Both the position numbers and the translations under genes were made by a program. Shown here in pieces: positions 1 through 45,624 of a DNA stretch of 64,000 nt. Each line of letters opens with the position of its first letter. Position 1 is the first letter of the stretch. This DNA comes from Candidatus Dojkabacteria bacterium. GTDB taxonomy: Bacteria; Patescibacteriota; Dojkabacteria; B142; JAFGFJ01. The stretch lies in the NCBI GenBank assembly GCA_016931155.1, contig JAFGFJ010000006.1, positions 13,115-77,114 of the forward strand. Reading direction: 5' to 3'. Below the pieces are notes generated by a model. The model was not told where the DNA came from, searched no databases, and worked only from the letters and a program-made list of their open reading frames with translations.

Positions 1-540
1 CCCGACAAAAGAAATAATAGGAGCGTGTCCTGAGCTTCCTTGAAGACGCTTCATTTCATCAGAAGAGGAATTCTCTGCTGTAGAAACGCTATTCTCCATC
101 ATTGCAGTAGAAGCCGTATCAGAAGTATGTTGTGTCTGAGAATCCGTACTGCTCCTGGAACCCGCCGCTATATTCATATCTCTTAGTTTAATAATTGCAA
201 GATGCTCCAATATCCTCTCTTTGATCTCATTCAATCCATAATGATGCTTATCAAGCATCTGCTTTGCATTTTGAAGATCGAGATTATCAGTTGTATACTT
301 CTCCCATGGAATTTTTGTGATCCATTCTGCATATTTCTGTACAATCTCAAACTCCTGACTGTAACTCCCAAGCCTGGCTACACGCCTCACCCGATTTATC
401 ATCTGCTCTACCCTTTCCTTAAGTTCTTGTGGAAGTTTTACAGAAGAAACTAATTGTCCGAGTTTTTCTATTTCAGCTATACTATCGTGGTTCTCCGGAA
501 GACCTGTATTTGTTTGTAAGTTCTGCGGATTTGTCATTAT
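1..540 (-). CDS. lon: ATP-dependent Lon-like protease, 5' part; the gene continues past the window start
   Basis: Minus-strand translation from the ATG at 540-538 gives MTNPQNLQ...LDKHHYGLNEIKERILEHLAI...APIISFVG. This matches the Lon region just before the AAA+ Walker A (HYGL-x-VK-RILEYLAV ... GPILCLVGPPG). An in-frame TAA lies upstream of the ATG. The ORF track missed it because it is truncated at the window edge. It contains a low-complexity S/T-rich insertion. Confidence 0.65.
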   Translation of the reverse strand, partial: MMTNPQNLQTNTGLPENHDSIAEIEKLGQLVSSVKLPQELKERVEQMINRVRRVARLGSYSQEFEIVQKYAEWITKIPWEKYTTDNLDLQNAKQMLDKHHYGLNEIKERILEHLAIIKLRDMNIAAGSRSSTDSQTQHTSDTASTAMMENSVSTAENSSSDEMKRLQGSSGHAPIISFVG

Positions 541-723
541 CGATTAACAATACAGGATATAATACCCGAAACGTCTGGATAAAGAAATCAGAACTGCTCT
601 GAGATTCTAAGGACTTTGCCAGAAAAGTATTAGATCAGTAATATTGAGACTCTCCGCTCAGAGTCCACAAGCTTAAGATCGACCATACTAGTTGAACTGG
701 AATACTTCAGAAAGGGTAAATTT

Positions 724-1443
724 TTAGTCTTTCTTTTCCTGACCTTTTTCATCTTTTTTCTCTTCTCCAGTCTCACCCTCCTTTGATTCACCCTCCTTAC
801 CTTCAGCTCCTTCCTCCCCTTCAGATGCAGCATCATCTTCACCTTCAACCCCTTCTGCAGGTTTTTCTTCCTCCACTATTTCCTTCTGCGGAGGAGCAAT
901 GTATGCTATAGCGTTGTTTAGAGGAACACCGAAATCAAATTCCACCCCTTCTGGAAGACTGATATCTCTCACAAGAACCGAATCTCCAACCTCAGCAAGA
1001 TGCTCGACCTTTACTACAAATTCTGAGGGAAGAGTCATTGGAAGACTCCTTACAGCAACTTCTGTTACCGGTGTTACAAGGAACCCGATATTTATCTTTA
1101 CGGCTTGCGGAACACCATCGTAGCGAATCGGAACTTCAATATTTATCTTTCTATCCATATCAACCTGATAGAGACTTACATGCTGAAATCTATTTGTCAG
1201 AGAATCTAATTGGACTTCTTTGATCAATACCTTTCCCTCCTCTTTTTCGCCCTCATACTCAAAATTTACCATTTGGGAGTGTCCAGCCTCATTGAAAACC
1301 TTCTCAAACTCTTTGTAGTCAACAGTTACAGGCTCAGATTCTTTTTTGGGTCCATAAACTGTTGCGGGTATCGAACCTTCTTTTCGAAGATTTTTAACTT
1401 TTCTGCCAAGTATGTTTCGTTTTTTAGCCTTGATAGTCAACAT
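724..1443 (-). CDS. rplY: 50S ribosomal protein L25 / general stress protein Ctc, with an acidic low-complexity C-terminal tail
   Basis: N-terminus MLTIKAKKRNILGRKVKNLRKEGSIPATVYG is typical of L25/Ctc. The C-terminal ~60 aa is E/K/G-rich. Confidence 0.8.
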   Translation of the reverse strand: MLTIKAKKRNILGRKVKNLRKEGSIPATVYGPKKESEPVTVDYKEFEKVFNEAGHSQMVNFEYEGEKEEGKVLIKEVQLDSLTNRFQHVSLYQVDMDRKINIEVPIRYDGVPQAVKINIGFLVTPVTEVAVRSLPMTLPSEFVVKVEHLAEVGDSVLVRDISLPEGVEFDFGVPLNNAIAYIAPPQKEIVEEEKPAEGVEGEDDAASEGEEGAEGKEGESKEGETGEEKKDEKGQEKKD

Positions 1444-1446
1444 TTA

Positions 1447-1920
1447 TCAGTCTTCTTTTTTAATAATGATTCTTCGATCTTCTCCTTCTCCAATACTTTC
1501 AGTAGCAATTCCCTTTTCCTTTTGAAGGGTCATATGGACAATTCTTCTCTCATTTGGCTTCATCGGCTCAAGTTCAAGATCCTGACCAGACTCCCTAACT
1601 TGATCCACCGCCTGTAGTGCCATAGAAACCAGATATTCTTCTCTCTTCTCCCTATAATCATTTATATCTAAAATTACCCTGTACTGACCTTCACTTTCTC
1701 TCCCAATAATTAGTCCCAGAATAGTTTGAATTCCCTCGAGTATTTTACCATGATGCCCTATCAAATTTCCCAAATCTTCTCCAATGATTTTCACTGCAAG
1801 ATATTTTCTATCCTCGTCACCCTCCTGCATATGCACATCAATTTCCCCTCTAACTTCAAGTCTGTCCAGTATTTCCTTCGCCGTTTCTTTAGTTTTAGCA
1901 ATAGCCGACTTATCGTCCAT
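1447..1920 (-). CDS. jag: Jag/KhpB-like KH + R3H RNA-binding protein
   Basis: KH-like GxxG (IGHHGKILEGIQ) and an R3H-like C-terminal region. It sits immediately downstream of yidC, as in the conserved yidC-jag pair. Confidence 0.75.
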   Translation of the reverse strand: MDDKSAIAKTKETAKEILDRLEVRGEIDVHMQEGDEDRKYLAVKIIGEDLGNLIGHHGKILEGIQTILGLIIGRESEGQYRVILDINDYREKREEYLVSMALQAVDQVRESGQDLELEPMKPNERRIVHMTLQKEKGIATESIGEGEDRRIIIKKED

Positions 1921-1930
1921 TTTGATTTAA

Positions 1931-2827
1931 TTAAACAGTTGGAGAAAATTTACTTCTTAGCCAATTTACAACCCTTATCCTCTCCCTTATTAGCTGTTGG
2001 ATTATAACAAAGAAGCTCTGGATAGTCCAATACAAACTCAAACCCGAGATGAACCTCAGAGAAAATATTACTGTCATAATGGGCAGAATATACATCATCT
2101 GGCTTGTCGAAGACTGCATCATTTTAGAAAAATCAGGTGTTTCTTCATCTTTTTTCTTTTTCCCGGATTTTTTCTCTTCTCTTTCTTTCTTCTTTCCCTC
2201 TTCTCCAACAATTGAAAGACCACTCATCACTCTCGATGAAAGGAACTGGGATGCACCAACCGCAAGAGCAAGAAGGATATATGGCCATGCGCTGGAAATA
2301 TTTGTGAGACCAATATCACTAGCAGTTTTGGAGAGATCAATTCCCAAAAAGACTGGGTTTATAACCGCATCTTCCGCAAACACAGAAATAAAAGGATATG
2401 CTACATCGTTAAACGCTGTGACGCCCTTTTCAAAAAGATTTCTAATTACGCTGTTTATCTGGAAAAGGAAAATAATCTGAAAAATGAGAGGAAGGCACCC
2501 ACCCAGTTGACCGGGAAGGTACTTGGATTGAATCTTTGCCAACTCCTGCATCTGCTTTTCTTTGTTTTTGGCATATTTCTTTTGAATTTTTTCATATTCT
2601 GTTCTGAACTCTTTGTTTTTCTCCGCATTTTTCAGCTGATTTGCAGTGAACGGAAGCATTATCAGCCTTGAGACAAGAGCAACAGCTATAATCCCAAGAC
2701 CAAGGTTTTCGCCAAAGAAGCGGTACGCAACTATTAGAAAGTTAAAAATTGGTTGGTAAAATAGAACGCTAATTATATTCAATGCAAAAAATGGAAAATT
2801 AAGTGGGCTCAGGGATTTTACCAGCAT
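1931..2827 (-). CDS. yidC: membrane protein insertase YidC/Oxa1 family
   Basis: Multi-TM protein with the conserved C-terminal YidC region (...GLSLYWTIQSFFVIIQQLIRERI), followed by jag. Confidence 0.85.
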   Translation of the reverse strand: MLVKSLSPLNFPFFALNIISVLFYQPIFNFLIVAYRFFGENLGLGIIAVALVSRLIMLPFTANQLKNAEKNKEFRTEYEKIQKKYAKNKEKQMQELAKIQSKYLPGQLGGCLPLIFQIIFLFQINSVIRNLFEKGVTAFNDVAYPFISVFAEDAVINPVFLGIDLSKTASDIGLTNISSAWPYILLALAVGASQFLSSRVMSGLSIVGEEGKKKEREEKKSGKKKKDEETPDFSKMMQSSTSQMMYILPIMTVIFSLRFISGLSLYWTIQSFFVIIQQLIRERIRVVNWLRSKFSPTV

Positions 2828-2875
2828 TAGGCACCAAAAACAAATTTCGCTACCTCCAAAACGTCATTTCAAAAG

Positions 2876-3238
2876 CTAGGTCTGTCTTCCTTCTTCGAGA
2901 AGTCTTGATTCAAGCTCGTCAGTATTTCGATAAATCATTGCAAGAGCTTTCTGAATTTCTTTCACATAGACCTCCAGATTGTCTGTGCTCTTTTTGACAA
3001 GATCAAGTTTGAAAGAAAGCTCATTCAACTTTGTTTCCATGCCCCTGATTTTTCCCTCCATAGTTTTTACCTGTGTTCCAATATCCCCACTGGAACTTAT
3101 TCTAAGCTCCTGAGTTATTATTGCTACTTTATCAGACAATCTTTTCAGCTCATCATACGTTTTATTTACTTTGTCTTCCATTTTCTTAATTCCTACGCAA
3201 AATAGCAAATTAGTACATAGAATACTAGCATACCTCAC
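2876..3238 (-). CDS. hypothetical coiled-coil protein
   Basis: 120-aa ORF with heptad-like K/E/L-rich sequence and no recognisable family. Confidence 0.4.
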   Translation of the reverse strand: MRYASILCTNLLFCVGIKKMEDKVNKTYDELKRLSDKVAIITQELRISSSGDIGTQVKTMEGKIRGMETKLNELSFKLDLVKKSTDNLEVYVKEIQKALAMIYRNTDELESRLLEEGRQT

Positions 3239-3668
3239 CCAAACATAATAATAGTAATTAGCACGAGTATGGATAATGTTACGTGAAACAATGACTTACT
3301 GCCGTTTATAGAACACAGTTTCATACTCTTATTGATAAGTACCCAATACACATATACTTTACTATACTTACCTATGCAGATACGACGAAAGAAAGAATAC
3401 TCTACCTTTGCCATCTCTTTTTCCACCCACCAGACTTTCAGAAAAACACTGGTTTAAAGTCCAGGCAGAATAGATCCATCTTCAAATAACAGATGGAGAA
3501 AATGTCAATAAATCAGGCAAAAAAACATTTTCTTACAAAATCGGAAAGTAACACTTCACTGAGACCCTTCGGGCAGATCCGTGGGTTTGTAATCGGTTAC
3601 ACTCTAAGGGAATATGCTATTAAAAACTATGCTATTATGGTGGAAATAATAATTTTTATGTTATAACC

Positions 3669-3977
3669 ATGACTTTCAAAGATATAGTCAGAAAATCAAT
3701 CCTTTTCGGTCTTGGAGCTTACCAAATAACCAAAGAAGAAGTGGAAGATTTCGTAAAGGATTTACAAAAAGATGAAACCATAACCCCTCAAGAGGGGAAG
3801 AAAATGATTCAGGAAATCGTAAAGGCTGCAGAAAAAAAGATGAAAAGGCCAAACGAAGAACTCAAAAAGAGTATGGAAAGAATCGTCAAGTCTGTGATAA
3901 ATGAATTAGGAGTAGCAACGAAAAAGGATATCGCAGCACTCAAAACAGAGATGAAGAAGCCCAGAAAGGTGAGATAA
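3669..3977 (+). CDS. hypothetical protein (phasin-like helical protein)
   Basis: 102-aa lysine/glutamate-rich helical ORF with weak resemblance to phasin/granule-associated proteins. Confidence 0.4.
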   Translation: MTFKDIVRKSILFGLGAYQITKEEVEDFVKDLQKDETITPQEGKKMIQEIVKAAEKKMKRPNEELKKSMERIVKSVINELGVATKKDIAALKTEMKKPRKVR

Positions 3978-4161
3978 AGGTTGCTATTTGCGAAAAAAAT
4001 GTTATAATCTCCCCGTGCTAGATCAGAGTGTCCAATTTAGTCTTAGTAATTGATAAGAGACGCAAAAATTTTCGGGTACTTTGGTCGGATAAGTTATGTT
4101 ATTCCTCTAGTGTAAATCCTCTAGTGTAGCAAATCCATATTTTAGTTAGTTTTAAGTTAAA

Positions 4162-4422
4162 ATGAATAATAAGTTATTTGTTGGTGGAATTGCATGGGCA
4201 ACCACAGAAGAAGGCCTTAAGGAGCTTTTCGGCCAGGTCGGTAATGTAGTTGAAGTTAAAATTATAGTTGACAGAATGACCGGTAAATCGAGAGGTTTCG
4301 GTTTTGTCACTATGGAAACCGAAGAGGAAGCTGAAAAAGCTATTAAAGAGTTTAATGGCAAGGATCTTGACGGTAGAGCTCTCGTTGTAAACGCAGCAAA
4401 GCCACAGGAGAATAGACAATAA
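4162..4422 (+). CDS. RRM-type RNA-binding protein
   Basis: RNP2-like LFVGGI and RNP1-like RGFGFVTM motifs; the 86-aa size is typical for bacterial RRM proteins. Confidence 0.9.
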   Translation: MNNKLFVGGIAWATTEEGLKELFGQVGNVVEVKIIVDRMTGKSRGFGFVTMETEEEAEKAIKEFNGKDLDGRALVVNAAKPQENRQ

Positions 4423-4438
4423 AGTCTCTTTAGAAAAA

Positions 4439-4462
4439 GGGGCTCCTCGGAGTCCCTTTTTT
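4439..4462 (+). terminator. Rho-independent terminator after the RRM gene
   Basis: GC-rich hairpin GGGGCTCC-TC-GGAGTCCC followed by TTTTTT, directly after the stop codon. Confidence 0.6.
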
Positions 4463-4626
4463 GTCGGGAAAATTACGAAGTTATTGTTGATGTCTTTTGA
4501 AATGTCCTCCGGGATTGATTATGGCTCATTCTTACTCCAGTTAAGATCAAAAAACTGCTTGAACTGACCGGATTGTTATTTTTGGACTGTTTATTTGGAA
4601 CTCATTTATCCTTTCCTTCTTTCCTT

Positions 4627-5415
4627 TCACTTCTCTCCCAAACTCTCCCTTTTTTCTCTTTCCTTCTGTTTCTTCTCTTTTTTTCCTTCTCCTCCAAGCT
4701 GACCGTACATTTTTTCAAATCTTCTTGTTTTGCGGGCAAGAAAACTTACTCCAAGAGCCGTAACAGCCGCTATTCCCGCAAGGCCAAGGAGATGTACTGC
4801 AAACTTACTCACTGGCAATGATATCCTTCTATCCGAAACCCTTATCTTAACAGGCAGAATTTTATATCTTCCCCCAATTCTAATCACTCTTTTAACAAAA
4901 TCCGCATCTTCTCCAACACTTATTGACTCAGAAAATCCACCTGCCATTTCAAAAACTCTTTTCCAGACGATCATACAGGCACCACACTCTGCAAGAACAT
5001 TTTTAGTGTAATAACCAAATTTTTTGAGCAAGTGCCAGCCCTTGAAATATAGAAAATTACGTAACTTCTTCCTCTCTGCCTCTATCTTACAGGTTGCAAT
5101 ATGGTATTTGCCTCTAACAAACATTGGGATTGCCCTTTCAAAAAAGTCGTTCGGGAGAACAACATCCGCATCGAGAAAAACAAGAATATCTGTTTTCGCA
5201 TGCCTTGCACCGAGGTTTCTTCCCCTGCCAATTCGTCCATCATCAACACCCCTTACAACTTTTGCCCCAAGTCTTTTTGCTACAACACCTGTACCATCCG
5301 TAGACTTATCGGCAACAATGATCTGATTCGGTTCAGTTGTTTGAGCTTTTAGGTTTAAAAGAAGCCTTTTGATATTCTGCTGCTCATTTTTTGTTGGAAT
5401 TACAACTGAAAACAT
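4627..5415 (-). CDS. family 2 glycosyltransferase (Dpm1/GtrB-like) with a C-terminal TM helix
   Basis: MFSVVIPTKNEQQNI...IIVADKSTDGT...DADV: GT-A fold motifs including the DxD-like DAD. Confidence 0.8.
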   Translation of the reverse strand: MFSVVIPTKNEQQNIKRLLLNLKAQTTEPNQIIVADKSTDGTGVVAKRLGAKVVRGVDDGRIGRGRNLGARHAKTDILVFLDADVVLPNDFFERAIPMFVRGKYHIATCKIEAERKKLRNFLYFKGWHLLKKFGYYTKNVLAECGACMIVWKRVFEMAGGFSESISVGEDADFVKRVIRIGGRYKILPVKIRVSDRRISLPVSKFAVHLLGLAGIAAVTALGVSFLARKTRRFEKMYGQLGGEGKKEKKQKEREKRESLGEK

Positions 5416-5423
5416 GAGATAAA

Positions 5424-6158
5424 TTATTTTCCTCCTCCAGTCTCACCATACATTTTTTCAAACTTGTGCATGTTTTTTCTGAGCATATTTATTCCCACAA
5501 CGCTTACCGCAAACATACCAGCTAAACCGATAAGCTGTACAGCCAGTTTTCTCATGGGTCTTCTAAACCTCCTGTCCGAAGTAATCACAGTCAAGGGAAG
5601 AACTTTGAACCTGCCACCTGCTTTCACTGCCCTCCTTATAAAATCGGAATCCTCCCCGACACTTATCTTCTCGGAAAATCCGCATATTTTTGTGAACAGA
5701 TCTTTTTTGACCAAAAGACATATCCCGGACTCCGCCAGCACCTTTTTTGTAACTGAACCAAATCTTTTTAACGCATTCCAACTATTGAAATATAGATAGT
5801 TTACAATTCTTTTTCTGTCGGCTCTCAAGTAACAGGTAGCAATGTCCAGCTTTTTTTGATGGAAAATTCTAAGGGCATCGGCAAAAAAACCTTCCGGGAT
5901 GAAAACATCTGCATCTATGAAAAAAAATAGGTCTGTTTTCGCATATCTTGCACCATTGTTCCTGCCCTTTCCAATAAAACCATCATCCGCTCCCTCAACA
6001 ACTTTAGCTCCATACTCTTTTGCAATTTCAGCTGTCCTGTCTGTGGATTTATCAGCAACTATTATCTCATCAGGCTGAACACCTTGAGATATTATACTTT
6101 TGAGGAGCCTCTCAATAAGCTCCTCTTCGTTTTTTGTCGGGACAATTACGGAAAACAT
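5424..6158 (-). CDS. family 2 glycosyltransferase; tandem paralog of 4627..5415
   Basis: MFSVIVPTKNEEELI...IIVADKSTDRT...IDADV. It is collinear with and about 55-60% identical by eye to the adjacent GT2. Confidence 0.8.
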   Translation of the reverse strand: MFSVIVPTKNEEELIERLLKSIISQGVQPDEIIVADKSTDRTAEIAKEYGAKVVEGADDGFIGKGRNNGARYAKTDLFFFIDADVFIPEGFFADALRIFHQKKLDIATCYLRADRKRIVNYLYFNSWNALKRFGSVTKKVLAESGICLLVKKDLFTKICGFSEKISVGEDSDFIRRAVKAGGRFKVLPLTVITSDRRFRRPMRKLAVQLIGLAGMFAVSVVGINMLRKNMHKFEKMYGETGGGK

Positions 6159-6483
6159 TAGCTCCCATTATTACACATTTCGATAGGGATGTTTACACAC
6201 CGATATCTATCACATCAAATGCGACAAACCGCAACCTCGTCAGGTTATCTAATCCTGACAGTAATAATTGACAAAATAGAACGAAAGATAAAAGAAGAAA
6301 AAAAGAAAGGAAAAGGTAAAGACTGCTGAAGTAGAATTACCTCCGTAGTACAATTGAGCTCTTCAAAAGCAGTTTTAGGGAGGCTGCCAAAGAGGAGCTC
6401 AATATTTTTAGCTGACATCTATTATATGGCTTTTTTTGCGGAAGGGTTATAGTATATTGTAATTACTTTTTATCTCACTTCTC

Positions 6484-8584: not shown

Positions 8585-8851
8585 ATGAATAACCAACAAA
8601 AACTACAAAACATTATTAAAGAAAAACCCTATTTAGCCTGGGACACAAGACAATTCGACAAATTATCAACAGAAAGCATTGTAGAGAAAATCTTAAATTA
8701 CGGTCACTGGGAGGAGTATATGAAAGTGGAAGAAATAATAGGACTAAAAGAGGTCAGCCGCATATTTGATAAAATGAAAAATAGAAAAAGAGTAAATTTA
8801 AGGCCGCAAGTCGTAAACTATTTCAGTAAATACTTCAAAAAATATGCATGA
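8585..8851 (+). CDS. hypothetical small protein, putative cognate antitoxin of the downstream nucleotidyltransferase
   Basis: 88-aa ORF overlapping the downstream gene start by 8 nt; this operonic coupling is typical of TA pairs. Confidence 0.4.
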   Translation: MNNQQKLQNIIKEKPYLAWDTRQFDKLSTESIVEKILNYGHWEEYMKVEEIIGLKEVSRIFDKMKNRKRVNLRPQVVNYFSKYFKKYA

Positions 8852-9455
8852 GGAAATTCTCTCGGATGAACAAATAAAGATATTACCTACCCTGAAAGGT
8901 TTTTCCGGAAAGTTTGGACTTGTAGGTGGCACTGCTATAGCACTTTACCTGGGACACAGAAGATCTATAGATTTTGATCTTTTCTCTCAGGAAGAATTTA
9001 ATAACGATAATATTAAAAATACACTCAGAGAAGGATTTAATAATTTAAGTGTACTGGTAGATTATAAGGGGGAACTTACACTGGTAATAAATGGAGTTAA
9101 GGTGACATTTTACAAATTCCCTTTCAAAATAGCTTTCACAAAAGATATAAGTGGAATAATTAAGACACCTGACCTATTGACACTTGCTGCAATGAAATCA
9201 CTTGCTTTAGGGGGAAGAGGCAAATGGAAGGACTATATTGATCTCTACTTTATTTTCCAAAAATATTCTCTGTCTGAAGTAATTGAAAAGGCAAAAGACT
9301 TATTTTCAGAACAATTCAATTCTAAATTGATCAGAGAACAGCTTGCTTATTTCAAAGATATCGATTATTCGGAAAAGATTGACTACTTGCCAGGATTTCA
9401 AGTGGATGATCAATTAGTTAAAGATAAACTTACAGAAATAAGTCTGGAGAAATAA
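8844..9455 (+). CDS. nucleotidyltransferase AbiEii/AbiGii (DUF1814) toxin-family protein
   Basis: N-terminal FGLVGGTAIALYLGHRRSIDFDLFS matches the GG[ST]A...HR.S.D.D nucleotidyltransferase signature of AbiEii-type toxins. Confidence 0.6.
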   Translation: MHEEILSDEQIKILPTLKGFSGKFGLVGGTAIALYLGHRRSIDFDLFSQEEFNNDNIKNTLREGFNNLSVLVDYKGELTLVINGVKVTFYKFPFKIAFTKDISGIIKTPDLLTLAAMKSLALGGRGKWKDYIDLYFIFQKYSLSEVIEKAKDLFSEQFNSKLIREQLAYFKDIDYSEKIDYLPGFQVDDQLVKDKLTEISLEK

Positions 9456-9619: not shown

Positions 9620-10243
9620 CTAAACTGATTCAAAGCCCTGCAAATGGTTATGTGTATCAAACTCTATTACCTTAAGTTTATCTCCGTATTCCAACATCGT
9701 ATACCCCCCTTCTGCTATTGTTGAATCCATAATTTCCTCACCAGAGGGTCTATAACTTTCATCAATTCGATAAATTAAATTTCCAATAAGTCCACCATGT
9801 GTAGAAATTAAAATATTTTCCAGGCTTTCTTTTTTCAATTCTTCAAAAAAGCATATACATCATCGAGAATTTGTTTAAGCGATTTATTGGTCTCTGGAGA
9901 GACAAACATTGGGTCAATTAACATCTTTCTTTGCAAATCTTTTCTGTATTCTTTAGGCTTAGAATAATCAATATATGCATATATTTCTGCCAGAGCATTC
10001 ACCGTTTTGATTTCTCCTAGATTTAATTACTTCTAACTATTTCAGCACTATGAATTGCACGGGGAAAAGGACTCGAAAAATGAAAGGTAAATTACAAAGC
10101 TCAGGAAATCTTTTATTCAGGATCTCAGCCAGTTTCTGAATTTGGATTATTCCAAACTTTGAAAGAGTTACTCCCCTCTTCACACTAAAGTCGGTGGACT
10201 CAACTTCCTGTTTTTCACCATGACGAAAAAGAAATATTTTCAT
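9620..10243 (-). pseudogene. histidine phosphatase (phosphoglycerate mutase family) gene disrupted by frameshifts
   Basis: The N-terminal MKIFLFRHGE (RHG catalytic motif) is at 10243..10037 and ends in a premature stop. The middle segment (~10030-9842) translates in a different frame as ...EIYAYIDYSKPKEYRKDLQRKMLIDPMFVSPETNKSLKQILDDVYAF. The C-terminal ...ILISTHGGLIGNLI is at 9838..9620 in a third frame. Confidence 0.6.
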
Positions 10244-10309: not shown

Positions 10310-10794
10310 CTCGTTTGCGGGCGGGATTATTTCTGAACTGGAAAAACTGTTACTGATCGTAAAGAATCCTTTACAAGTAGCTCGTACTGCTTAATCATAC
10401 AAAATTACCCTAACTATATGCAATGCTTTGATTGAAAAGCAAATAAAATAAATGTAAGGGAATGAACATTGATAATTTAATGGACTAATCTATAAGATAT
10501 CGAATCATTGAAATATCTAATCAAAATGTTATACTCTTTTTGTAGATGCTGATTAAATGTAAAAGTTTCTATCCGAAAGTAGTTCCTAGCTACTTCCTTT
10601 TTTTACCTGCATCGCTGCGTTTTTTTCTCCAACGACCATTTTTATTTCTATCTCTGGGTTGTGTACCACCCCCTTGCTCGGGGACATATGGACCTCTACC
10701 CAATCTTCTATCTGCCATCCTTATCACCTCCTTTCGAGATTAATTTCAGCACCTACAAACAGGGTACACTCCCTGTTTGGATTCAATTTCAATG

Positions 10795-11748
10795 CTATTT
10801 TAACTTTATATCAAGAATCCTTTTCACCTTATCCTGCCACCCTTTAGTATGTAATACACGATTATACGTTTCATTGTTCCTACGAAGTAATTCAGTTCTT
10901 GAAAGTTGGCTAAGCTTTACCCAATCTGAATAGAGCACATAGATTGCGTTTCCATAGTTTTGATTTTCGAAGACCACCAAGTCTTTGTTAATTACTGCTC
11001 CAAAATAGTTCCCAAAACCTGTCCTACCATAAATGTATTTTTTCGGTTTAAGCTTACCCATAAAATCTAACCTCTCTTTTGTAGCCTTTGTAGCATCAAT
11101 ATCTGAAGCCAAATTTTGCCCACTCATTACTTTCTTGACAAAGTCTTCTCTTTTCTCCGGTGGGAAAATCTCCCAATCAACTTGCTGTATCTTAGTGTAA
11201 TCAATTTTATCATCACTTCCCCTTAAATCTGAACGACCTGTTGATTCTTGTAGAAGGTTAATAGCGAAAAAGATTTCATCAGTATCATCGTGAGGAATAG
11301 GATTAGCTAATGAGAATTCGAATAATAGTGAATTATTTTTAATCTGTTTAATTTTCATTCTATGCCCATGTGCTGGCTCAATTTCTCTTTGGTATCGCTT
11401 TTTATTCCAAACGATTGTATGTGTCCCATTCGAAGCATCTCCCCAGTTAGGAGCTTCTACAGATATAGTATAATCTTCTTTTGGAAGGTCTTTACGTATG
11501 ATTTCTTTCTCATAAAGATTGAATTTGGTAAATCTTCCAATTATACCTGGGATAACCTCATCAGGATATGTCACTTTACCATCTTGTATCTTTATACCAA
11601 GATGTTTATAAACTCCATTTTCTATATCATCCTGTCTAAAGAGTTTTAATGAAAATACTTGAACATTTTCCTTCGAAGGAATTTCGTCAAGCTTTATTTG
11701 TAAATGTTTTGGCATATTTATATAGTATTTTTTCCACTTGTTTTTCAT
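10795..11748 (-). CDS. hypothetical protein, candidate toxin partner of the upstream HTH-Panacea gene
   Basis: 317-aa ORF on the same strand, 168 bp downstream of the Panacea-domain gene. No recognisable domain. Confidence 0.4.
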   Translation of the reverse strand: MKNKWKKYYINMPKHLQIKLDEIPSKENVQVFSLKLFRQDDIENGVYKHLGIKIQDGKVTYPDEVIPGIIGRFTKFNLYEKEIIRKDLPKEDYTISVEAPNWGDASNGTHTIVWNKKRYQREIEPAHGHRMKIKQIKNNSLLFEFSLANPIPHDDTDEIFFAINLLQESTGRSDLRGSDDKIDYTKIQQVDWEIFPPEKREDFVKKVMSGQNLASDIDATKATKERLDFMGKLKPKKYIYGRTGFGNYFGAVINKDLVVFENQNYGNAIYVLYSDWVKLSQLSRTELLRRNNETYNRVLHTKGWQDKVKRILDIKLK

Positions 11749-11915
11749 TGTAATCTATTAATAATAAATATAAATCTATAGCAAGAAGGTGTAAAACTTC
11801 CCATTCTATAATGATTTGACCTGGAAGTGGAAACTGTTATAATGAGGTGTAAAGTGTTCGTTACGAACAGAAAGCATACCTTCCAGGTGTGCTTTTTTTT
11901 AGGCTTCATTCATTC

Positions 11916-12611
11916 TTAAAACGGTAACAAATTAAGTAATTTATATTCTTTCTTCATATCATCTTCTGAAATAATTTTATTCGTTCTTTTCATAGCATTT
12001 TTCCAAGGTAACTCTTTGTGAGATTTCGCTCTAAGTTGATATGCTGAGTAATAACCAAGTTTTTCCAATACAGTATCTATTATTTTTTTTGATTGAGAAT
12101 CAAGCTCTTCATATGTTTTATCAATCGGTTCGTTGATTACATTTGCTACAAAATGTTTATATGAGTCATATAATTCGCGGACTACTGGCCCGTGATCCCA
12201 AGATTCAAGATTTTCCTTAAATAATGGGTACCCCCTCATTCCTAGATTGTACATTTGGACATAATAGATTAATTTATTCAGCTTCATGTTTGTTAGATCA
12301 TAATAAGATTCGTTTGATTTCTTTTCAAAATTGAAGATACGTTTCATTTGTTCAATGATGTACTTTGCGACATCTAAAACTGAGTATTGCTTTAGATTGT
12401 TTAATTTTGAATCTTCAGAGTTAATAAATTCTATATCAAGACCTGTAGCTGATAAGAATCTAAATAGAGTTTTACTACTTACACCAGTTTCACCACGCTC
12501 AATTCTCGCAATAGTAGACTGCGGTACTCCCATTCTTTCAGCAAGGTCTGTTTGCGATAAACCTAATCGCATTCTATATTCTTGAATTTTTTCAACTATT
12601 TCGTCTCTCAT
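11916..12611 (-). CDS. XRE-family HTH fused to a Panacea (DUF4065/SocA-like) domain; PanA-type antitoxin-like protein
   Basis: N-terminal LSQTDLAERMGVPQSTIARIERGE is an XRE HTH. C-terminal MKLNKLIYYVQMYNLGMRGYPLFKENLESWDHGPVVRELYDSYKHF matches the DUF4065/Panacea core (KLQKLLYYAQ...W.HGPV...Y). Confidence 0.65.
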   Translation of the reverse strand: MRDEIVEKIQEYRMRLGLSQTDLAERMGVPQSTIARIERGETGVSSKTLFRFLSATGLDIEFINSEDSKLNNLKQYSVLDVAKYIIEQMKRIFNFEKKSNESYYDLTNMKLNKLIYYVQMYNLGMRGYPLFKENLESWDHGPVVRELYDSYKHFVANVINEPIDKTYEELDSQSKKIIDTVLEKLGYYSAYQLRAKSHKELPWKNAMKRTNKIISEDDMKKEYKLLNLLPF

Positions 12612-12722
12612 AAAGGAAATCTAATAAATAACTGCTCAATAATACGTTAAAAAAATGTTTATGTCAAAAAAACATAATTAATTATGCGAAAGAGATATAA
12701 GAGAATAATTAGATAGAAAGAT

Positions 12723-13970
12723 TTATAAAATAGCCATCTGTTCCTCTACGAACTCTATTGGCATAGAAACGTATTTATCTTTATCATACGTTTTATTCAA
12801 CATAGAAACCGCAGCCTGTCCAATATGATAACCCAAATTCACTGGGACGGCGTTGCCAATTTGTTTGTACTGAGAGGTTGTTGATCCCTCGAATACCCAT
12901 TCATCTGGGAATGTTTGAATCCTAGCATATTCTCTAACAGTAAGAGGTCGAGTTTCTTCTGGATGGCATCTTTCTGTTTGCTTCTGAGCAGGGCTAGTTG
13001 TAAGAGTTAAACTAGGTTCATCCCATGATAATCTCCGAGCCATCCCAGTTTTTCCTCCGCTGTGATAATAGCTTTTTCCCATATATTCTTTTTGTACTTC
13101 CTCTGGTAAATCCCTCCAGTAACCACCAGGAGGTATCTGTTTCATAATTTCATATTTCTTTTCTGGGTATGACTGTCCTGAAGATTGTGGAACATTCTCA
13201 AGAGCCTCTCGAAGGGATACAAAATAATTTTTTTCTTTAGGAAACAAAATAGGAGTATCAAGATCATTCCTAACACCAATAATAATCAATCGTTCACGTT
13301 TTTGAGGAACGTCTAGATATTGAGATCGAAGTATTTTATAAGCGACTTTATATCCTAGTTCCTCTAATGTGTTAATCATAGTTGATAATGTACGTCCATT
13401 ATCATGCTTGTGTAGTCCTCGAACATTTTCACCTATAGCTATTTTAGGTTTAACTTCCTTCACACAACGTGCAAACTCAAAAAATAGAGTTCCTCTAGTA
13501 TCTTCAAATCCGCCCTTTTTCCCTGCATAACTGAATGATTGACATGGGAAACCGCCTTCAACGATATCTGCTGACATTTCCGTAAAATCAACATTCGCAA
13601 TATCATCTTCAATAACATTCCAATTTGGACGATTTGTTCTCAAAGTAGCTGCTGCATTTTTATCTATTTCTACTAGTAATTTATGTTCTAATCCAGCATT
13701 TTCTAAACCTAGTGCAGTCCCCCCAGCTCCCGAAAATAGATCTATAACAGTATATCCGGAGCTATTATCGGCTTTATGAATTTTATATCTATTATTGGAG
13801 TCATCTCCATCCAACTTTTTTATCAATCTATCGATTTCATCTAAATTAAAAACACGATAATTATTATCGGAACGAGAAGCCTTGATCAATCCTTTTTTCT
13901 CCCAACGACGTATAGTATCGGTTGATACATTTAATTTTTGAGCTGCATCGTGTACGGTAATTTTCTTCAT
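12723..13970 (-). CDS. DNA (cytosine-5)-methyltransferase with an N-terminal MerR-type HTH domain
   Basis: Motif I DLFSGAGG, motif IV GFPCQSFS, motif VI ENV, motif X QIGNAV. The N-terminal ~60 aa (LNVSTDTIRRWEKKGLIKA) is a MerR-like HTH. Confidence 0.9.
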   Translation of the reverse strand: MKKITVHDAAQKLNVSTDTIRRWEKKGLIKASRSDNNYRVFNLDEIDRLIKKLDGDDSNNRYKIHKADNSSGYTVIDLFSGAGGTALGLENAGLEHKLLVEIDKNAAATLRTNRPNWNVIEDDIANVDFTEMSADIVEGGFPCQSFSYAGKKGGFEDTRGTLFFEFARCVKEVKPKIAIGENVRGLHKHDNGRTLSTMINTLEELGYKVAYKILRSQYLDVPQKRERLIIIGVRNDLDTPILFPKEKNYFVSLREALENVPQSSGQSYPEKKYEIMKQIPPGGYWRDLPEEVQKEYMGKSYYHSGGKTGMARRLSWDEPSLTLTTSPAQKQTERCHPEETRPLTVREYARIQTFPDEWVFEGSTTSQYKQIGNAVPVNLGYHIGQAAVSMLNKTYDKDKYVSMPIEFVEEQMAIL

Positions 13971-14070
13971 GATTATAGTTTAATGGTAACCTTTACATAA
14001 TGCAAGGGTTACAGCGATTATTCTTTCTATTATGCTTGTTGTATACTTATAGACAGTTTAAGTTATTTTT

Positions 14071-14787
14071 ATGACAGATAAACAAAAAAAAGAAACTCTT
14101 AATAAAGCAAAGAAGTTTTTCAAAGCCTCTATATCGAACAGTCATTTAGGTAATACTGAAAAGCTAGTTACAGTATCGGAATTCAACGTTAATCCTTTTT
14201 TGGTTAAATACCTTGCGCAATTTTTTACCGGAAATACAAAAGCTGAAAGTATAGCTAAGGTTCTTATTTATCCGCGTATTTTGGGAACATCGATTAATAC
14301 AACATTCGGAAGTAGGTTACAAGCTTTCATCAGTGAGGTTTTAGAGGGATATGGTTCCACAACAGCAGGAATTGACATCGAATTTATTGATGCTTTAGAC
14401 AAAAGAAAAAAGTATTGTCAGGTTAAAGCAGGCTCAAATACGATAAACAAAGATGATGTAAAAACTATAAAAGATCATTTCAAATCTGTTTATAGTTTAG
14501 CAAGAACAAATAATCTGAAGGTGACTCTTGATGATATGGTGGTTGGAGTTTTATACGGAACTGAATCCGAATTGAGTTATCACTATAAGAAATTACAAGA
14601 GAATTATCCTGTACACGTTGGGAGTGAGTTTTGGTTTAGGGTAACAGGAGATAAGCATTTCTATATAGACTTAATTGACGCCTTTAGCGAAGTCGCAAAA
14701 GAAATAAATGGTTTTAAAGTTGTAAACAAAGTAGTAAAAGAACTCTCAGAAGATATTGAAAGAAATTACTCTGGATTATTACTATAG
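14071..14787 (+). CDS. putative Type II restriction endonuclease (PD-(D/E)xK-like), divergent from the methyltransferase
   Basis: 238-aa ORF transcribed divergently from the C5-MTase with a 100-bp spacer. GIDIEFID...CQVK resembles a D...ExK catalytic motif. Confidence 0.45.
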   Translation: MTDKQKKETLNKAKKFFKASISNSHLGNTEKLVTVSEFNVNPFLVKYLAQFFTGNTKAESIAKVLIYPRILGTSINTTFGSRLQAFISEVLEGYGSTTAGIDIEFIDALDKRKKYCQVKAGSNTINKDDVKTIKDHFKSVYSLARTNNLKVTLDDMVVGVLYGTESELSYHYKKLQENYPVHVGSEFWFRVTGDKHFYIDLIDAFSEVAKEINGFKVVNKVVKELSEDIERNYSGLLL

Positions 14788-45429: not shown

Positions 45430-45624
45430 ATGGTAGAGTCAAGCAAAATCAAACGAATAAGAGAGAAAATGGGGTTATCGCAAGAAAAGCTAGCCCGTCT
45501 TGCTGATGTTTCCAATAATACGATAATCAACATTGAAGCTGGCAAGCAACAAAACCCAACCATTGATACAATTAAAAAAATCGCAAAGGCATTAAATGTG
45601 CCAATCGAGGATTTAATAAAATAA
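45430..45624 (+). CDS. controller (C) protein, XRE-family HTH, of a Type II R-M operon
   Basis: 64 aa; GLSQEKLARLADVSNNTIINIEAGK is an XRE HTH. It sits directly upstream of and co-oriented with the R and M genes (C-R-M order). Confidence 0.75.
   Translation: MVESSKIKRIREKMGLSQEKLARLADVSNNTIINIEAGKQQNPTIDTIKKIAKALNVPIEDLIK

Follow-up and report, generated by a model that had tools for sequence, protein, structure and literature searches.

A candidate control-plus-effector module pairing an HTH-Panacea protein with an uncharacterized 317-amino-acid family in a Candidatus Dojkabacteria defense island

In a contig of Candidatus Dojkabacteria bacterium (GenBank assembly GCA_016931155.1, contig JAFGFJ010000006.1, positions 13,115 to 77,114), a gene encoding a helix-turn-helix (HTH) protein with a Panacea domain precedes, in the same orientation, a gene encoding a 317-amino-acid (aa) protein of an uncharacterized family (referred to as FAM). 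The locus raises the question of whether these genes form one functional unit, and whether the 317-aa protein is a toxin restrained by its HTH-Panacea neighbor, as in the Panacea-containing toxin-antitoxin (TA) systems known as PanAT. The complete stretch of 64,000 nucleotides (nt) analyzed is termed the window, and its features are listed in Table 1. That the two genes make up a toxin-antidote or defense module is plausible but unproven, and the pair is a solid candidate rather than a surprise. The favored reading, given a probability of roughly 0.45, is a functionally linked control-plus-effector module in a horizontally acquired defense island, in which the HTH-Panacea protein controls a 317-aa effector that is harmful when uncontrolled. 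The HTH-Panacea protein would be expressed from a sigma-70-like promoter (positions 12667 to 12639) and would restrain the 317-aa protein through transcriptional repression by the HTH, binding by the Panacea domain, or both. If phage infection, DNA damage, or the loss of the island removed or inactivated the control protein, its 317-aa partner would build up and arrest growth as an abortive-infection or addiction effector. The link between the two genes in the window, the toxicity of the 317-aa protein, and the mode of its neutralization are putative.

The HTH-Panacea gene and the 317-aa protein

An initial annotation of the window had described the upstream product as an XRE-type HTH joined to a Panacea core, and the domain searches bore this out. 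An N-terminal XRE-type domain matched Pfam HTH_3 (aa 9 to 62, E = 2.7e-15), and the C-terminal region matched SocA_Panacea (PF13274, DUF4065; aa 111 to 204, E = 2.9e-20, 73.7 bits versus a cutoff of 25.7), with profile positions 1 to 113 of 113 covered and the domain therefore complete. The NCBIfam SocA_antitoxin model also matched (2.8e-15, 56 bits), well below its equivalog cutoff of 190, and PADLOC models of RmrA matched over the HTH only (aa 6 to 74). The protein is identical to an NCBI entry annotated as a DUF4065 domain-containing protein of Candidatus Dojkabacteria bacterium. Both open reading frames (ORFs) were found on the minus strand, co-oriented and at the positions first reported, and all three peptide strings that had been quoted for them were present in the translations. 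The HTH-Panacea protein is a candidate repressor and/or antidote of the downstream 317-aa gene.

The nearest relative of the window Panacea protein (42% identity) was found at locus L091, where its start codon overlaps the stop codon of a gene for a NERD-domain protein (positions 4090 to 6229), a candidate toxin-first pair, in a cluster that also encodes an HNH_2 protein and two Dcm methylases. A C5-methylase gene stands just upstream both of this relative and of the window Panacea gene, and a spacer of about 168 nt comes after each of them.

Searches with the 317-aa sequence alone and with a 62-sequence profile gave no above-noise match in Pfam, NCBIfam, PADLOC, PHROGs, or PDB sequences, in agreement with the earlier statement that no motif could be assigned. 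The protein belongs to a stand-alone family of about 2,100 clusters at 50% identity, with the conserved motifs PNWGDxSNGTHT, LNLLQE, DLVVFENxxYGNAIY, SRxELL, and RIxHxxxW and the invariant residues H110, N164/Q167, N267, R284, and H300. The start that yields 317 aa is favored because the N terminus (MKNKWKKYY) is conserved in a 57%-identical homolog at locus L007 (MKYNWKKYY); a gene caller instead placed the start at Met12, giving 306 aa. A cryptic DUF2188 domain in the family was considered and rejected (hhalign of the family profile against DUF2188, probability 0.4%).

The AlphaFold model of the 317-aa protein was confident (predicted local distance difference test score, 91) and comprised two alpha+beta domains, and no solved structure resembled it. 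The best structural resemblances were to binding modules, namely, the TnsE C-terminal domain, the MotA C-terminal domain, UEV, and immunity and chaperone proteins. Neither structural nor sequence similarity to PD-(D/E)xK, HEPN, PIN, HNH, TIR, SIR2, Fic/Doc, or RelA-SpoT domains or to pore formers was found in the family. No toxin-like fold was recognized, and the product does not belong among the housekeeping enzymes.

Genes adjoining the 317-aa family in other genomes

ORFs were called in 90 loci carrying members of the family, as a sample and not a full census, and clusters of neighboring genes were labeled by Pfam and PADLOC. An HTH-type regulator was present within 1.5 kb of the family gene in 23 of 79 species-representative genomes. 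M78 genes numbered 15 at 0 to 1.5 kb from the family gene, 2 at 1.5 to 3 kb, and 0 at 3 to 6 kb, despite more sequence being available further out. Split pairs of XRE and M78 genes, mostly divergent and upstream, matched capH (2e-27) and capP (5e-61) at about 10 homolog loci and on one Segatella plasmid. HTH-plus-M78 proteins of the RmrA type were found at L028, L043, and L071, including fused HTH-M78 proteins that matched RosmerTA RmrA over their full length (L028, 1.5e-107; L071, 8e-47). LexA-like HTH-S24 proteins (Peptidase_S24 plus LexA_DNA_bind) were often encoded co-oriented with the family gene, -8 to 62 nt upstream, and other regulators carried the Pfam labels Peptidase_M78 and HTH_3. 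At loci from the candidate phyla radiation (CPR; L012, L020, L023, L026, and L034), a co-oriented HTH-S24 gene or XRE and M78 genes stood directly upstream, in the position equivalent to that of HTH-Panacea in the window.

The control-plus-effector module is favored because this regulator slot recurs across genomes and is positionally equivalent in CPR relatives, because M78 regulators are concentrated at the family gene, and because the neighboring regulators (CapP, CapH, RmrA, S24, and M78 proteins) are recognized control or antitoxin proteins. The setting, which includes restriction-modification (R-M) genes, AbiEii, a P4 hotspot, DUF2188, and ThsB-type TIR proteins, argues for the same reading. 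No gene in the window other than that for the 317-aa protein is a candidate partner of the Panacea protein, since the gene upstream encodes a methylase and a 54-aa ORF in the spacer scores as noncoding. The family behaves as portable defense-island cargo placed under adjacent, interchangeable modules of an HTH and a responsive domain.

The pairing with Panacea as seen in the window is rare and is not conserved. Panacea adjoined the family gene in 0 of 80 species-representative genomes, and the only Panacea neighbor elsewhere was at L007, from the same metagenome; none was found at the other approximately 90 loci inspected. At L007, the Panacea gene is divergent from the family gene, and its product is non-orthologous to the window Panacea protein. 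Since the two family members are 57% identical and their Panacea neighbors only 20% identical, swapping of Panacea partners, as described for this domain in PanAT systems, is suggested, and this counts in favor of the module. Other homologs had other neighbors, including a LexA-like repressor and DUF2188 (46% identity), a 213-aa protein in a phage-like region (42%), and an AAA_21 and RloB pair (39%); for a 37%-identical homolog, no neighbor was informative. The initial annotation overstated the strength of the Panacea link. The family repeatedly adjoins antitoxin or repressor genes, RmrA of RosmerTA among them. Neither homology to a housekeeping enzyme nor a lack of co-occurrence with antitoxin-type genes, either of which had been named as a ground for dismissing the pair, was observed.

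At L007 (positions 4420 to 5730), a co-oriented gene for a 175-aa protein lies 84 nt downstream of the HTH-Panacea gene, and the two are a PanAT candidate better spaced than the window pair. The 175-aa protein carries an RNNMVAH (Rx4H) motif and had no Pfam or PADLOC match; homology to the C5 neighbors described below was considered and rejected.

The rarity of the pairing bears on the possibility that adjacency in the window is coincidental, with the two genes being independent cargo of one defense island, the Panacea protein an orphan or a regulator of, for instance, the R-M genes, and the 317-aa gene a separate unit transcribed alone from its own promoter. Panacea proteins lie in TA-like loci in only about half of cases (PMC8832971), the spacer in the window is long and holds a promoter-like site, and the shared position of the window Panacea gene and its 42%-identical relative behind C5-methylase genes would fit such independence. 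Among the roughly 95 loci inspected, a chance adjacency within a defense island might plausibly have arisen once or twice, and the neighbors of the family are heterogeneous (among them NLR-like ATPase, type IIG R-M, ResIII helicase, Tn3, and AAA_21 plus RloB). Coincidence is nevertheless judged rather unlikely, as both Panacea adjacencies fall within one narrow subclade of the family and involve non-orthologous Panacea proteins, which pure chance would not lead one to expect, the association of the family gene with HTH control genes is strong and distance dependent, and the Panacea protein has no other candidate partner in the window. Without a real link, the locus would be unremarkable, with two unrelated genes sharing one defense island.

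Besides regulators, the family gene was found in tight arrangements with several other genes. DUF2188 (PADLOC PDC-S16, 8e-29), the commonest small neighbor, directly adjoined it at 9 independent loci, nearly always in the company of a regulator. A TIR gene lay directly downstream, at 11 to 104 nt, in 11 mostly alphaproteobacterial genomes (L028, L032, L033, L036, L040, L041, L044, L045, L048, L058, and L069), and its product matched the ThsB model over its full length (2.6e-116). These loci appear to represent one recently mobile two-gene cassette rather than independent events, because the TIR proteins are about 90% identical (by inspection) and the flanks differ. The cassette TIR protein has a Gly-, Tyr-, and Ser-rich N-terminal region, and the cassette occurs in many alpha- and betaproteobacterial genera. 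An unannotated family of about 230 aa, labeled C5, was tightly coupled to the family gene directly on its upstream side, with distances of -29 to +17 nt, at 7 or 8 loci (L063, L064, L068, L070, L076, L081, and L088, and also L037); its members share an EIRNILTHR (Rx4H) motif and had no match in Pfam or PADLOC.

Enterobacter and 7 of the 5,426 complete E. coli genomes carry a cassette in which the family gene comes third, after PDC-M18A (5.6e-38) and PDC-M18B (3.5e-15), the latter a membrane protein (L001 to L004; L103, E. coli NZ_CP145622.1, positions 3434 to 6011; homolog WP_024191949.1). The cassette is tightly packed, with a 1-nt gap and then an overlap as annotated, and sits beside tRNA-Leu in a P4-like satellite, with psu on one side and the integrase gene on the other. 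This site is the defense hotspot described by Rousset et al. in 2022. Further neighbors included R-M enzymes (type IIG among them), an NLR-like ATPase, a ResIII helicase, Tn3, and AAA_21 plus RloB. A recurrent large helicase partner was considered and rejected, the large upstream ORFs (NLR-like ATPase, PFOR, type IIG R-M, ResIII helicase, and Tn3) being mutually unrelated. Homologs were present on 16 plasmids, some of them small and with no control gene beside the homolog, and the family is not typical phage cargo, since a search of 50,697 phage records gave a single weak match. A distant homolog of 303 aa, of which the C-terminal domain alone aligns (30% identity), occurs on Lactococcus cremoris SK11 plasmid 5, a dairy plasmid of 14 kb, where it is encoded 17 nt downstream of a DEAD/DEAH helicase of about 1,560 aa (L098, positions 1 to 3483).

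Such arrangements could also be explained if the 317-aa protein were a nontoxic sensor or adaptor for separate effectors (the TIR protein, the C5 protein, or the PDC-M18 membrane protein), with a solitary copy in the window for which HTH-Panacea is at most the transcription factor. The tight operons with variable effector-like partners (TIR, C5, and the overlapping PDC-M18B), the structural resemblance to binding modules, and the copies without any control gene are consistent with this role. It is nonetheless improbable, given that most loci have no effector-like partner, that pairing with antitoxins of the RmrA and Panacea types is a usual trait of toxins, that the non-TIR partner is normally the effector in two-gene TIR operons (Yirmiya et al. 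2025, bioRxiv 10.64898/2025.12.03.692087), and that the Rx4H reading of C5 is a motif match without Pfam or PADLOC support.

The control-plus-effector architecture, an HTH antitoxin or regulator beside an uncharacterized protein in a defense island, is already known. What is new is the family itself, which is large, has no known fold, is absent from Pfam, NCBIfam, and PADLOC, and occurs in five control or signaling contexts. If the link in the window is true, a widespread family, extending from CPR bacteria to E. coli, would join the list of toxin or defense effectors. The family connects systems that have been studied separately (Panacea TA, RosmerTA, CapH/CapP, DUF2188 modules, and a predicted Thoeris type), and the E. 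coli genomes with a homolog in the P4-satellite hotspot are a tractable entry point. In a bolder and doubtful extension, the family would be a killing or growth-arresting "hyperpromiscuous effector" with a new fold, operating under five or more kinds of control (Panacea, RmrA/ImmA, CapH/CapP, LexA-like repressors, and TIR nucleotide signaling of the Thoeris type) by a mechanism unlike those of known toxins. Such an effector would mirror the hyperpromiscuous Panacea antitoxin, and the window copy would be a working Panacea-controlled defense module in an ultra-small CPR bacterium.

Comparison with described systems

PanAT systems are the closest described counterpart. Kurata et al. (2022; PMC8832971) required a gap of at most 100 nt, conservation in at least two species, and no more than three genes, and reported that antitoxin-first order is the commoner (943 versus 325), that most PanT clusters have no known domain, and that Panacea partners are swapped between loci. 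Published PanA antitoxins act by binding the toxin. The window pair resembles these systems in having a Panacea (DUF4065) domain in one partner, an HTH-Panacea gene placed first and followed by a co-oriented protein of an uncharacterized family, a predicted operon of no more than three genes (a promoter-like site before it, a hairpin after it, and the methylase apart), Panacea partner swapping between related loci, and a mobile or defense context. It differs in its spacer, which at 167 nt (and not 168 bp, as first given) exceeds the 100-nt limit; in its two-gene architecture, for which no conservation was seen in other species; in the partner family, most of whose members occur without Panacea; and in the size of the partner, with 317 aa in two domains.

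On this evidence, it is unlikely that the locus is a type II pair in the strict sense, in which the 317-aa protein would be a new PanT that is constitutively co-expressed with, bound by, and neutralized by the Panacea domain. The complete Panacea and HTH domains, the co-orientation, the prevalent gene order, and the frequency of PanT clusters without known domains speak for such a pair, as do the pairing of the family with the other hub antitoxin, RmrA/ImmA, and the presence of a second, unrelated Panacea protein beside the closest homolog. The spacing and the lack of conservation speak against it, as do the L007 Panacea gene, which is divergent and has its own downstream partner, the absence of the pairing from all other homolog loci examined, a size of 317 aa that is large for a type II toxin, the lack of a recognized toxin-like fold, and the family members on small plasmids without an adjacent antitoxin. 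Of the proposal that the pair is a candidate PanAT, the genuine HTH-Panacea gene and the non-housekeeping partner thus remain, and a toxin-antitoxin reading is only partly supported.

RmrA/ImmA (ImmA hub D25) and Panacea are both hub antitoxins of TA networks (NetFlax, PMC10440598). The likeness of the family to RosmerTA lies in the full-length RmrA matches adjoining its members and in the control of a variable partner by a protein with an HTH and a C-terminal domain; the window differs in having no M78 gene, the family matches no PADLOC model and hence no RmrT model, and most RmrA-like neighbors are divergently transcribed rather than in one operon.

CapH/CapP and LexA-like proteins are damage-responsive repressors of defense operons, and systems of DUF2188 plus a hypothetical protein have been associated with CapH/CapP (Lau et al. 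2022, bioRxiv 10.1101/2022.04.27.489752). Homolog loci with divergent upstream XRE and M78 genes, often with DUF2188 in between, have the same layout, and the published hypothetical proteins may belong to the 317-aa family. The window differs in its co-oriented HTH-Panacea gene and in the absence of the XRE and M78 pair, and no DUF2188 ORF was detected in it at E < 0.1.

The likeness to Thoeris consists of the ThsB-type TIR genes beside the family at 11 homolog loci, with no TIR found in window ORFs by a local hidden Markov model from one TIR subfamily or by Pfam on the ORFs around the pair. Yirmiya et al. (2025, bioRxiv 10.64898/2025.12.03.692087) list near-identical TIR domains in their Table S1 under a putative Thoeris type that is labeled "DUF2188" and lies outside the 30 operons tested. 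The label does not fit the 317-aa family, because the family has no DUF2188 domain and no DUF2188 ORF was found at the TIR cassette loci; near two other TIRs of the DUF2188 cluster (P0270 and P0388), neither the 317-aa family nor DUF2188 was found. The label probably reflects the one gene in a wider module that has a Pfam annotation, and the family may clarify its meaning. The link between DUF2188 and defense is said to originate with Burroughs and Aravind in 2020.

PDC-M18 and PDC-S16 both adjoin the family gene in homolog loci, but they are computational candidates only, neither partner is present in the window, and the family itself has no PADLOC model. SocAB shares the Panacea domain, SocA being the proteolytic adaptor of a type VI TA system, but SocA lacks an HTH, and the 317-aa partner is unrelated to SocB.

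Transcription signals and genes around the pair

Table 1. Positions of the module genes, predicted signals, and neighboring genes in the window
Feature	Positions	Strand	Remarks
88-aa ORF	from 8585	plus	overlaps the AbiEii gene upstream; weak DUF6922 match
AbiEii-type nucleotidyltransferase toxin gene	8844-9455	plus	Pfam AbiEii 3e-12; PADLOC AbiEii 5e-7
42/45-aa ORF MADRRLGRGPYVPEQGGGTQPRDRNKNGRWRKKRSDAGKKRK	10590-10727	minus	very basic; strong Shine-Dalgarno (SD) sequence AGGAGGTGA; codon score 0.13, ambiguous
9-bp hairpin CAAACAGGG-6-CCCTGTTTG	10756-10779		G+C-containing; begins 16 nt past the stop codon of the 317-aa gene
317-aa protein gene	10795-11748	minus	uncharacterized stand-alone family (FAM); co-oriented with HTH-Panacea gene
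54-aa ORF	11745-11909	minus	starts 7 nt past the Panacea stop codon; ATGA overlap with the start of the 317-aa gene
Spacer	11749-11915	minus	contains promoter-like site and 54-aa ORF
Promoter-like TTTACA-17-TATATT	11795-11767	minus	in spacer; consensus match (promoter scan)
HTH-Panacea gene, 231 aa	11916-12611	minus	Pfam HTH_3 and SocA_Panacea
Promoter-like TTGACA-17-TATTAT	12639-12667	minus	11/12 consensus match; about 28 nt upstream of the Panacea start codon; best of region
MerR-HTH-fused C5 cytosine methylase	12723-13970	minus	Pfam DNA_methylase 1.3e-88, MerR 2e-12; PADLOC MTase_II 6e-127
EcoO109I-like endonuclease	14071-14787	plus	divergent from methylase; Pfam RE_EcoO109I 4.9e-35

The number of promoter-like sites in the region was no higher than in shuffled sequences. 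The site upstream of the Panacea gene is the likely promoter of the module, as a match to the consensus only, CPR promoters not being characterized, and the minus-strand site in the spacer could give rise to a separate transcript for the 317-aa gene. The hairpin past the 317-aa gene probably marks the end of the transcription unit; a T-run is present on its plus-strand side only. A near-consensus extended -10 promoter-like site on the plus strand (TTGACC-16-TATAAT with TG, positions 11816 to 11843) also lies inside the spacer and is oriented to read into the Panacea gene from its 3' end, antisense to it.

A hidden third gene was considered for the 54-aa spacer ORF and rejected, its codon score of -0.04 being like that of spurious ORFs (0.00 ± 0.11, versus 0.24 ± 0.09 for real genes) and the ORF being called by no gene caller; it is probably not coding. 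The ORF has a hydrophobic core and no SD sequence. Also rejected were an operator common to both upstream regions, for which only AT-rich repeats at chance level were found, and a conserved spacer element, the spacer having no similarity to the equally long one after the Panacea homolog in L091. No Rfam family matched the spacer at threshold, and its RNA fold was not significant (z = -1.3). The 42/45-aa ORF lies just past the hairpin, on the same strand as the 317-aa gene.

The methylase gene, 111 nt from the Panacea gene, and the endonuclease gene form a type II R-M pair (positions 12723 to 14787) that is context outside the module, as is the AbiEii locus (positions 8585 to 9455). G+C content was 31 to 36% over 9 to 17 kb, with 35 to 36% only in the 10- to 11-kb and 13- to 14-kb segments, versus 34 to 42% on the flanks. 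The region is regarded as a defense island because of the R-M pair, AbiEii, and the low G+C content. The methylase carries its MerR-type HTH at the N terminus, and this fusion suggests autoregulation rather than control by a separate C protein. Before AbiEii, the 88-aa ORF occupies the place of an AbiEi antitoxin of normal length. The only other match to the local HTH model in the window was a stand-alone XRE-type HTH ORF of 64 aa (positions 45430 to 45624, plus strand). A 68-aa ORF (positions 10037 to 10243, minus strand) begins with MKIFLFRHGEK, resembling the N-terminal RHG motif of histidine phosphatases, and may be a gene remnant in the island.

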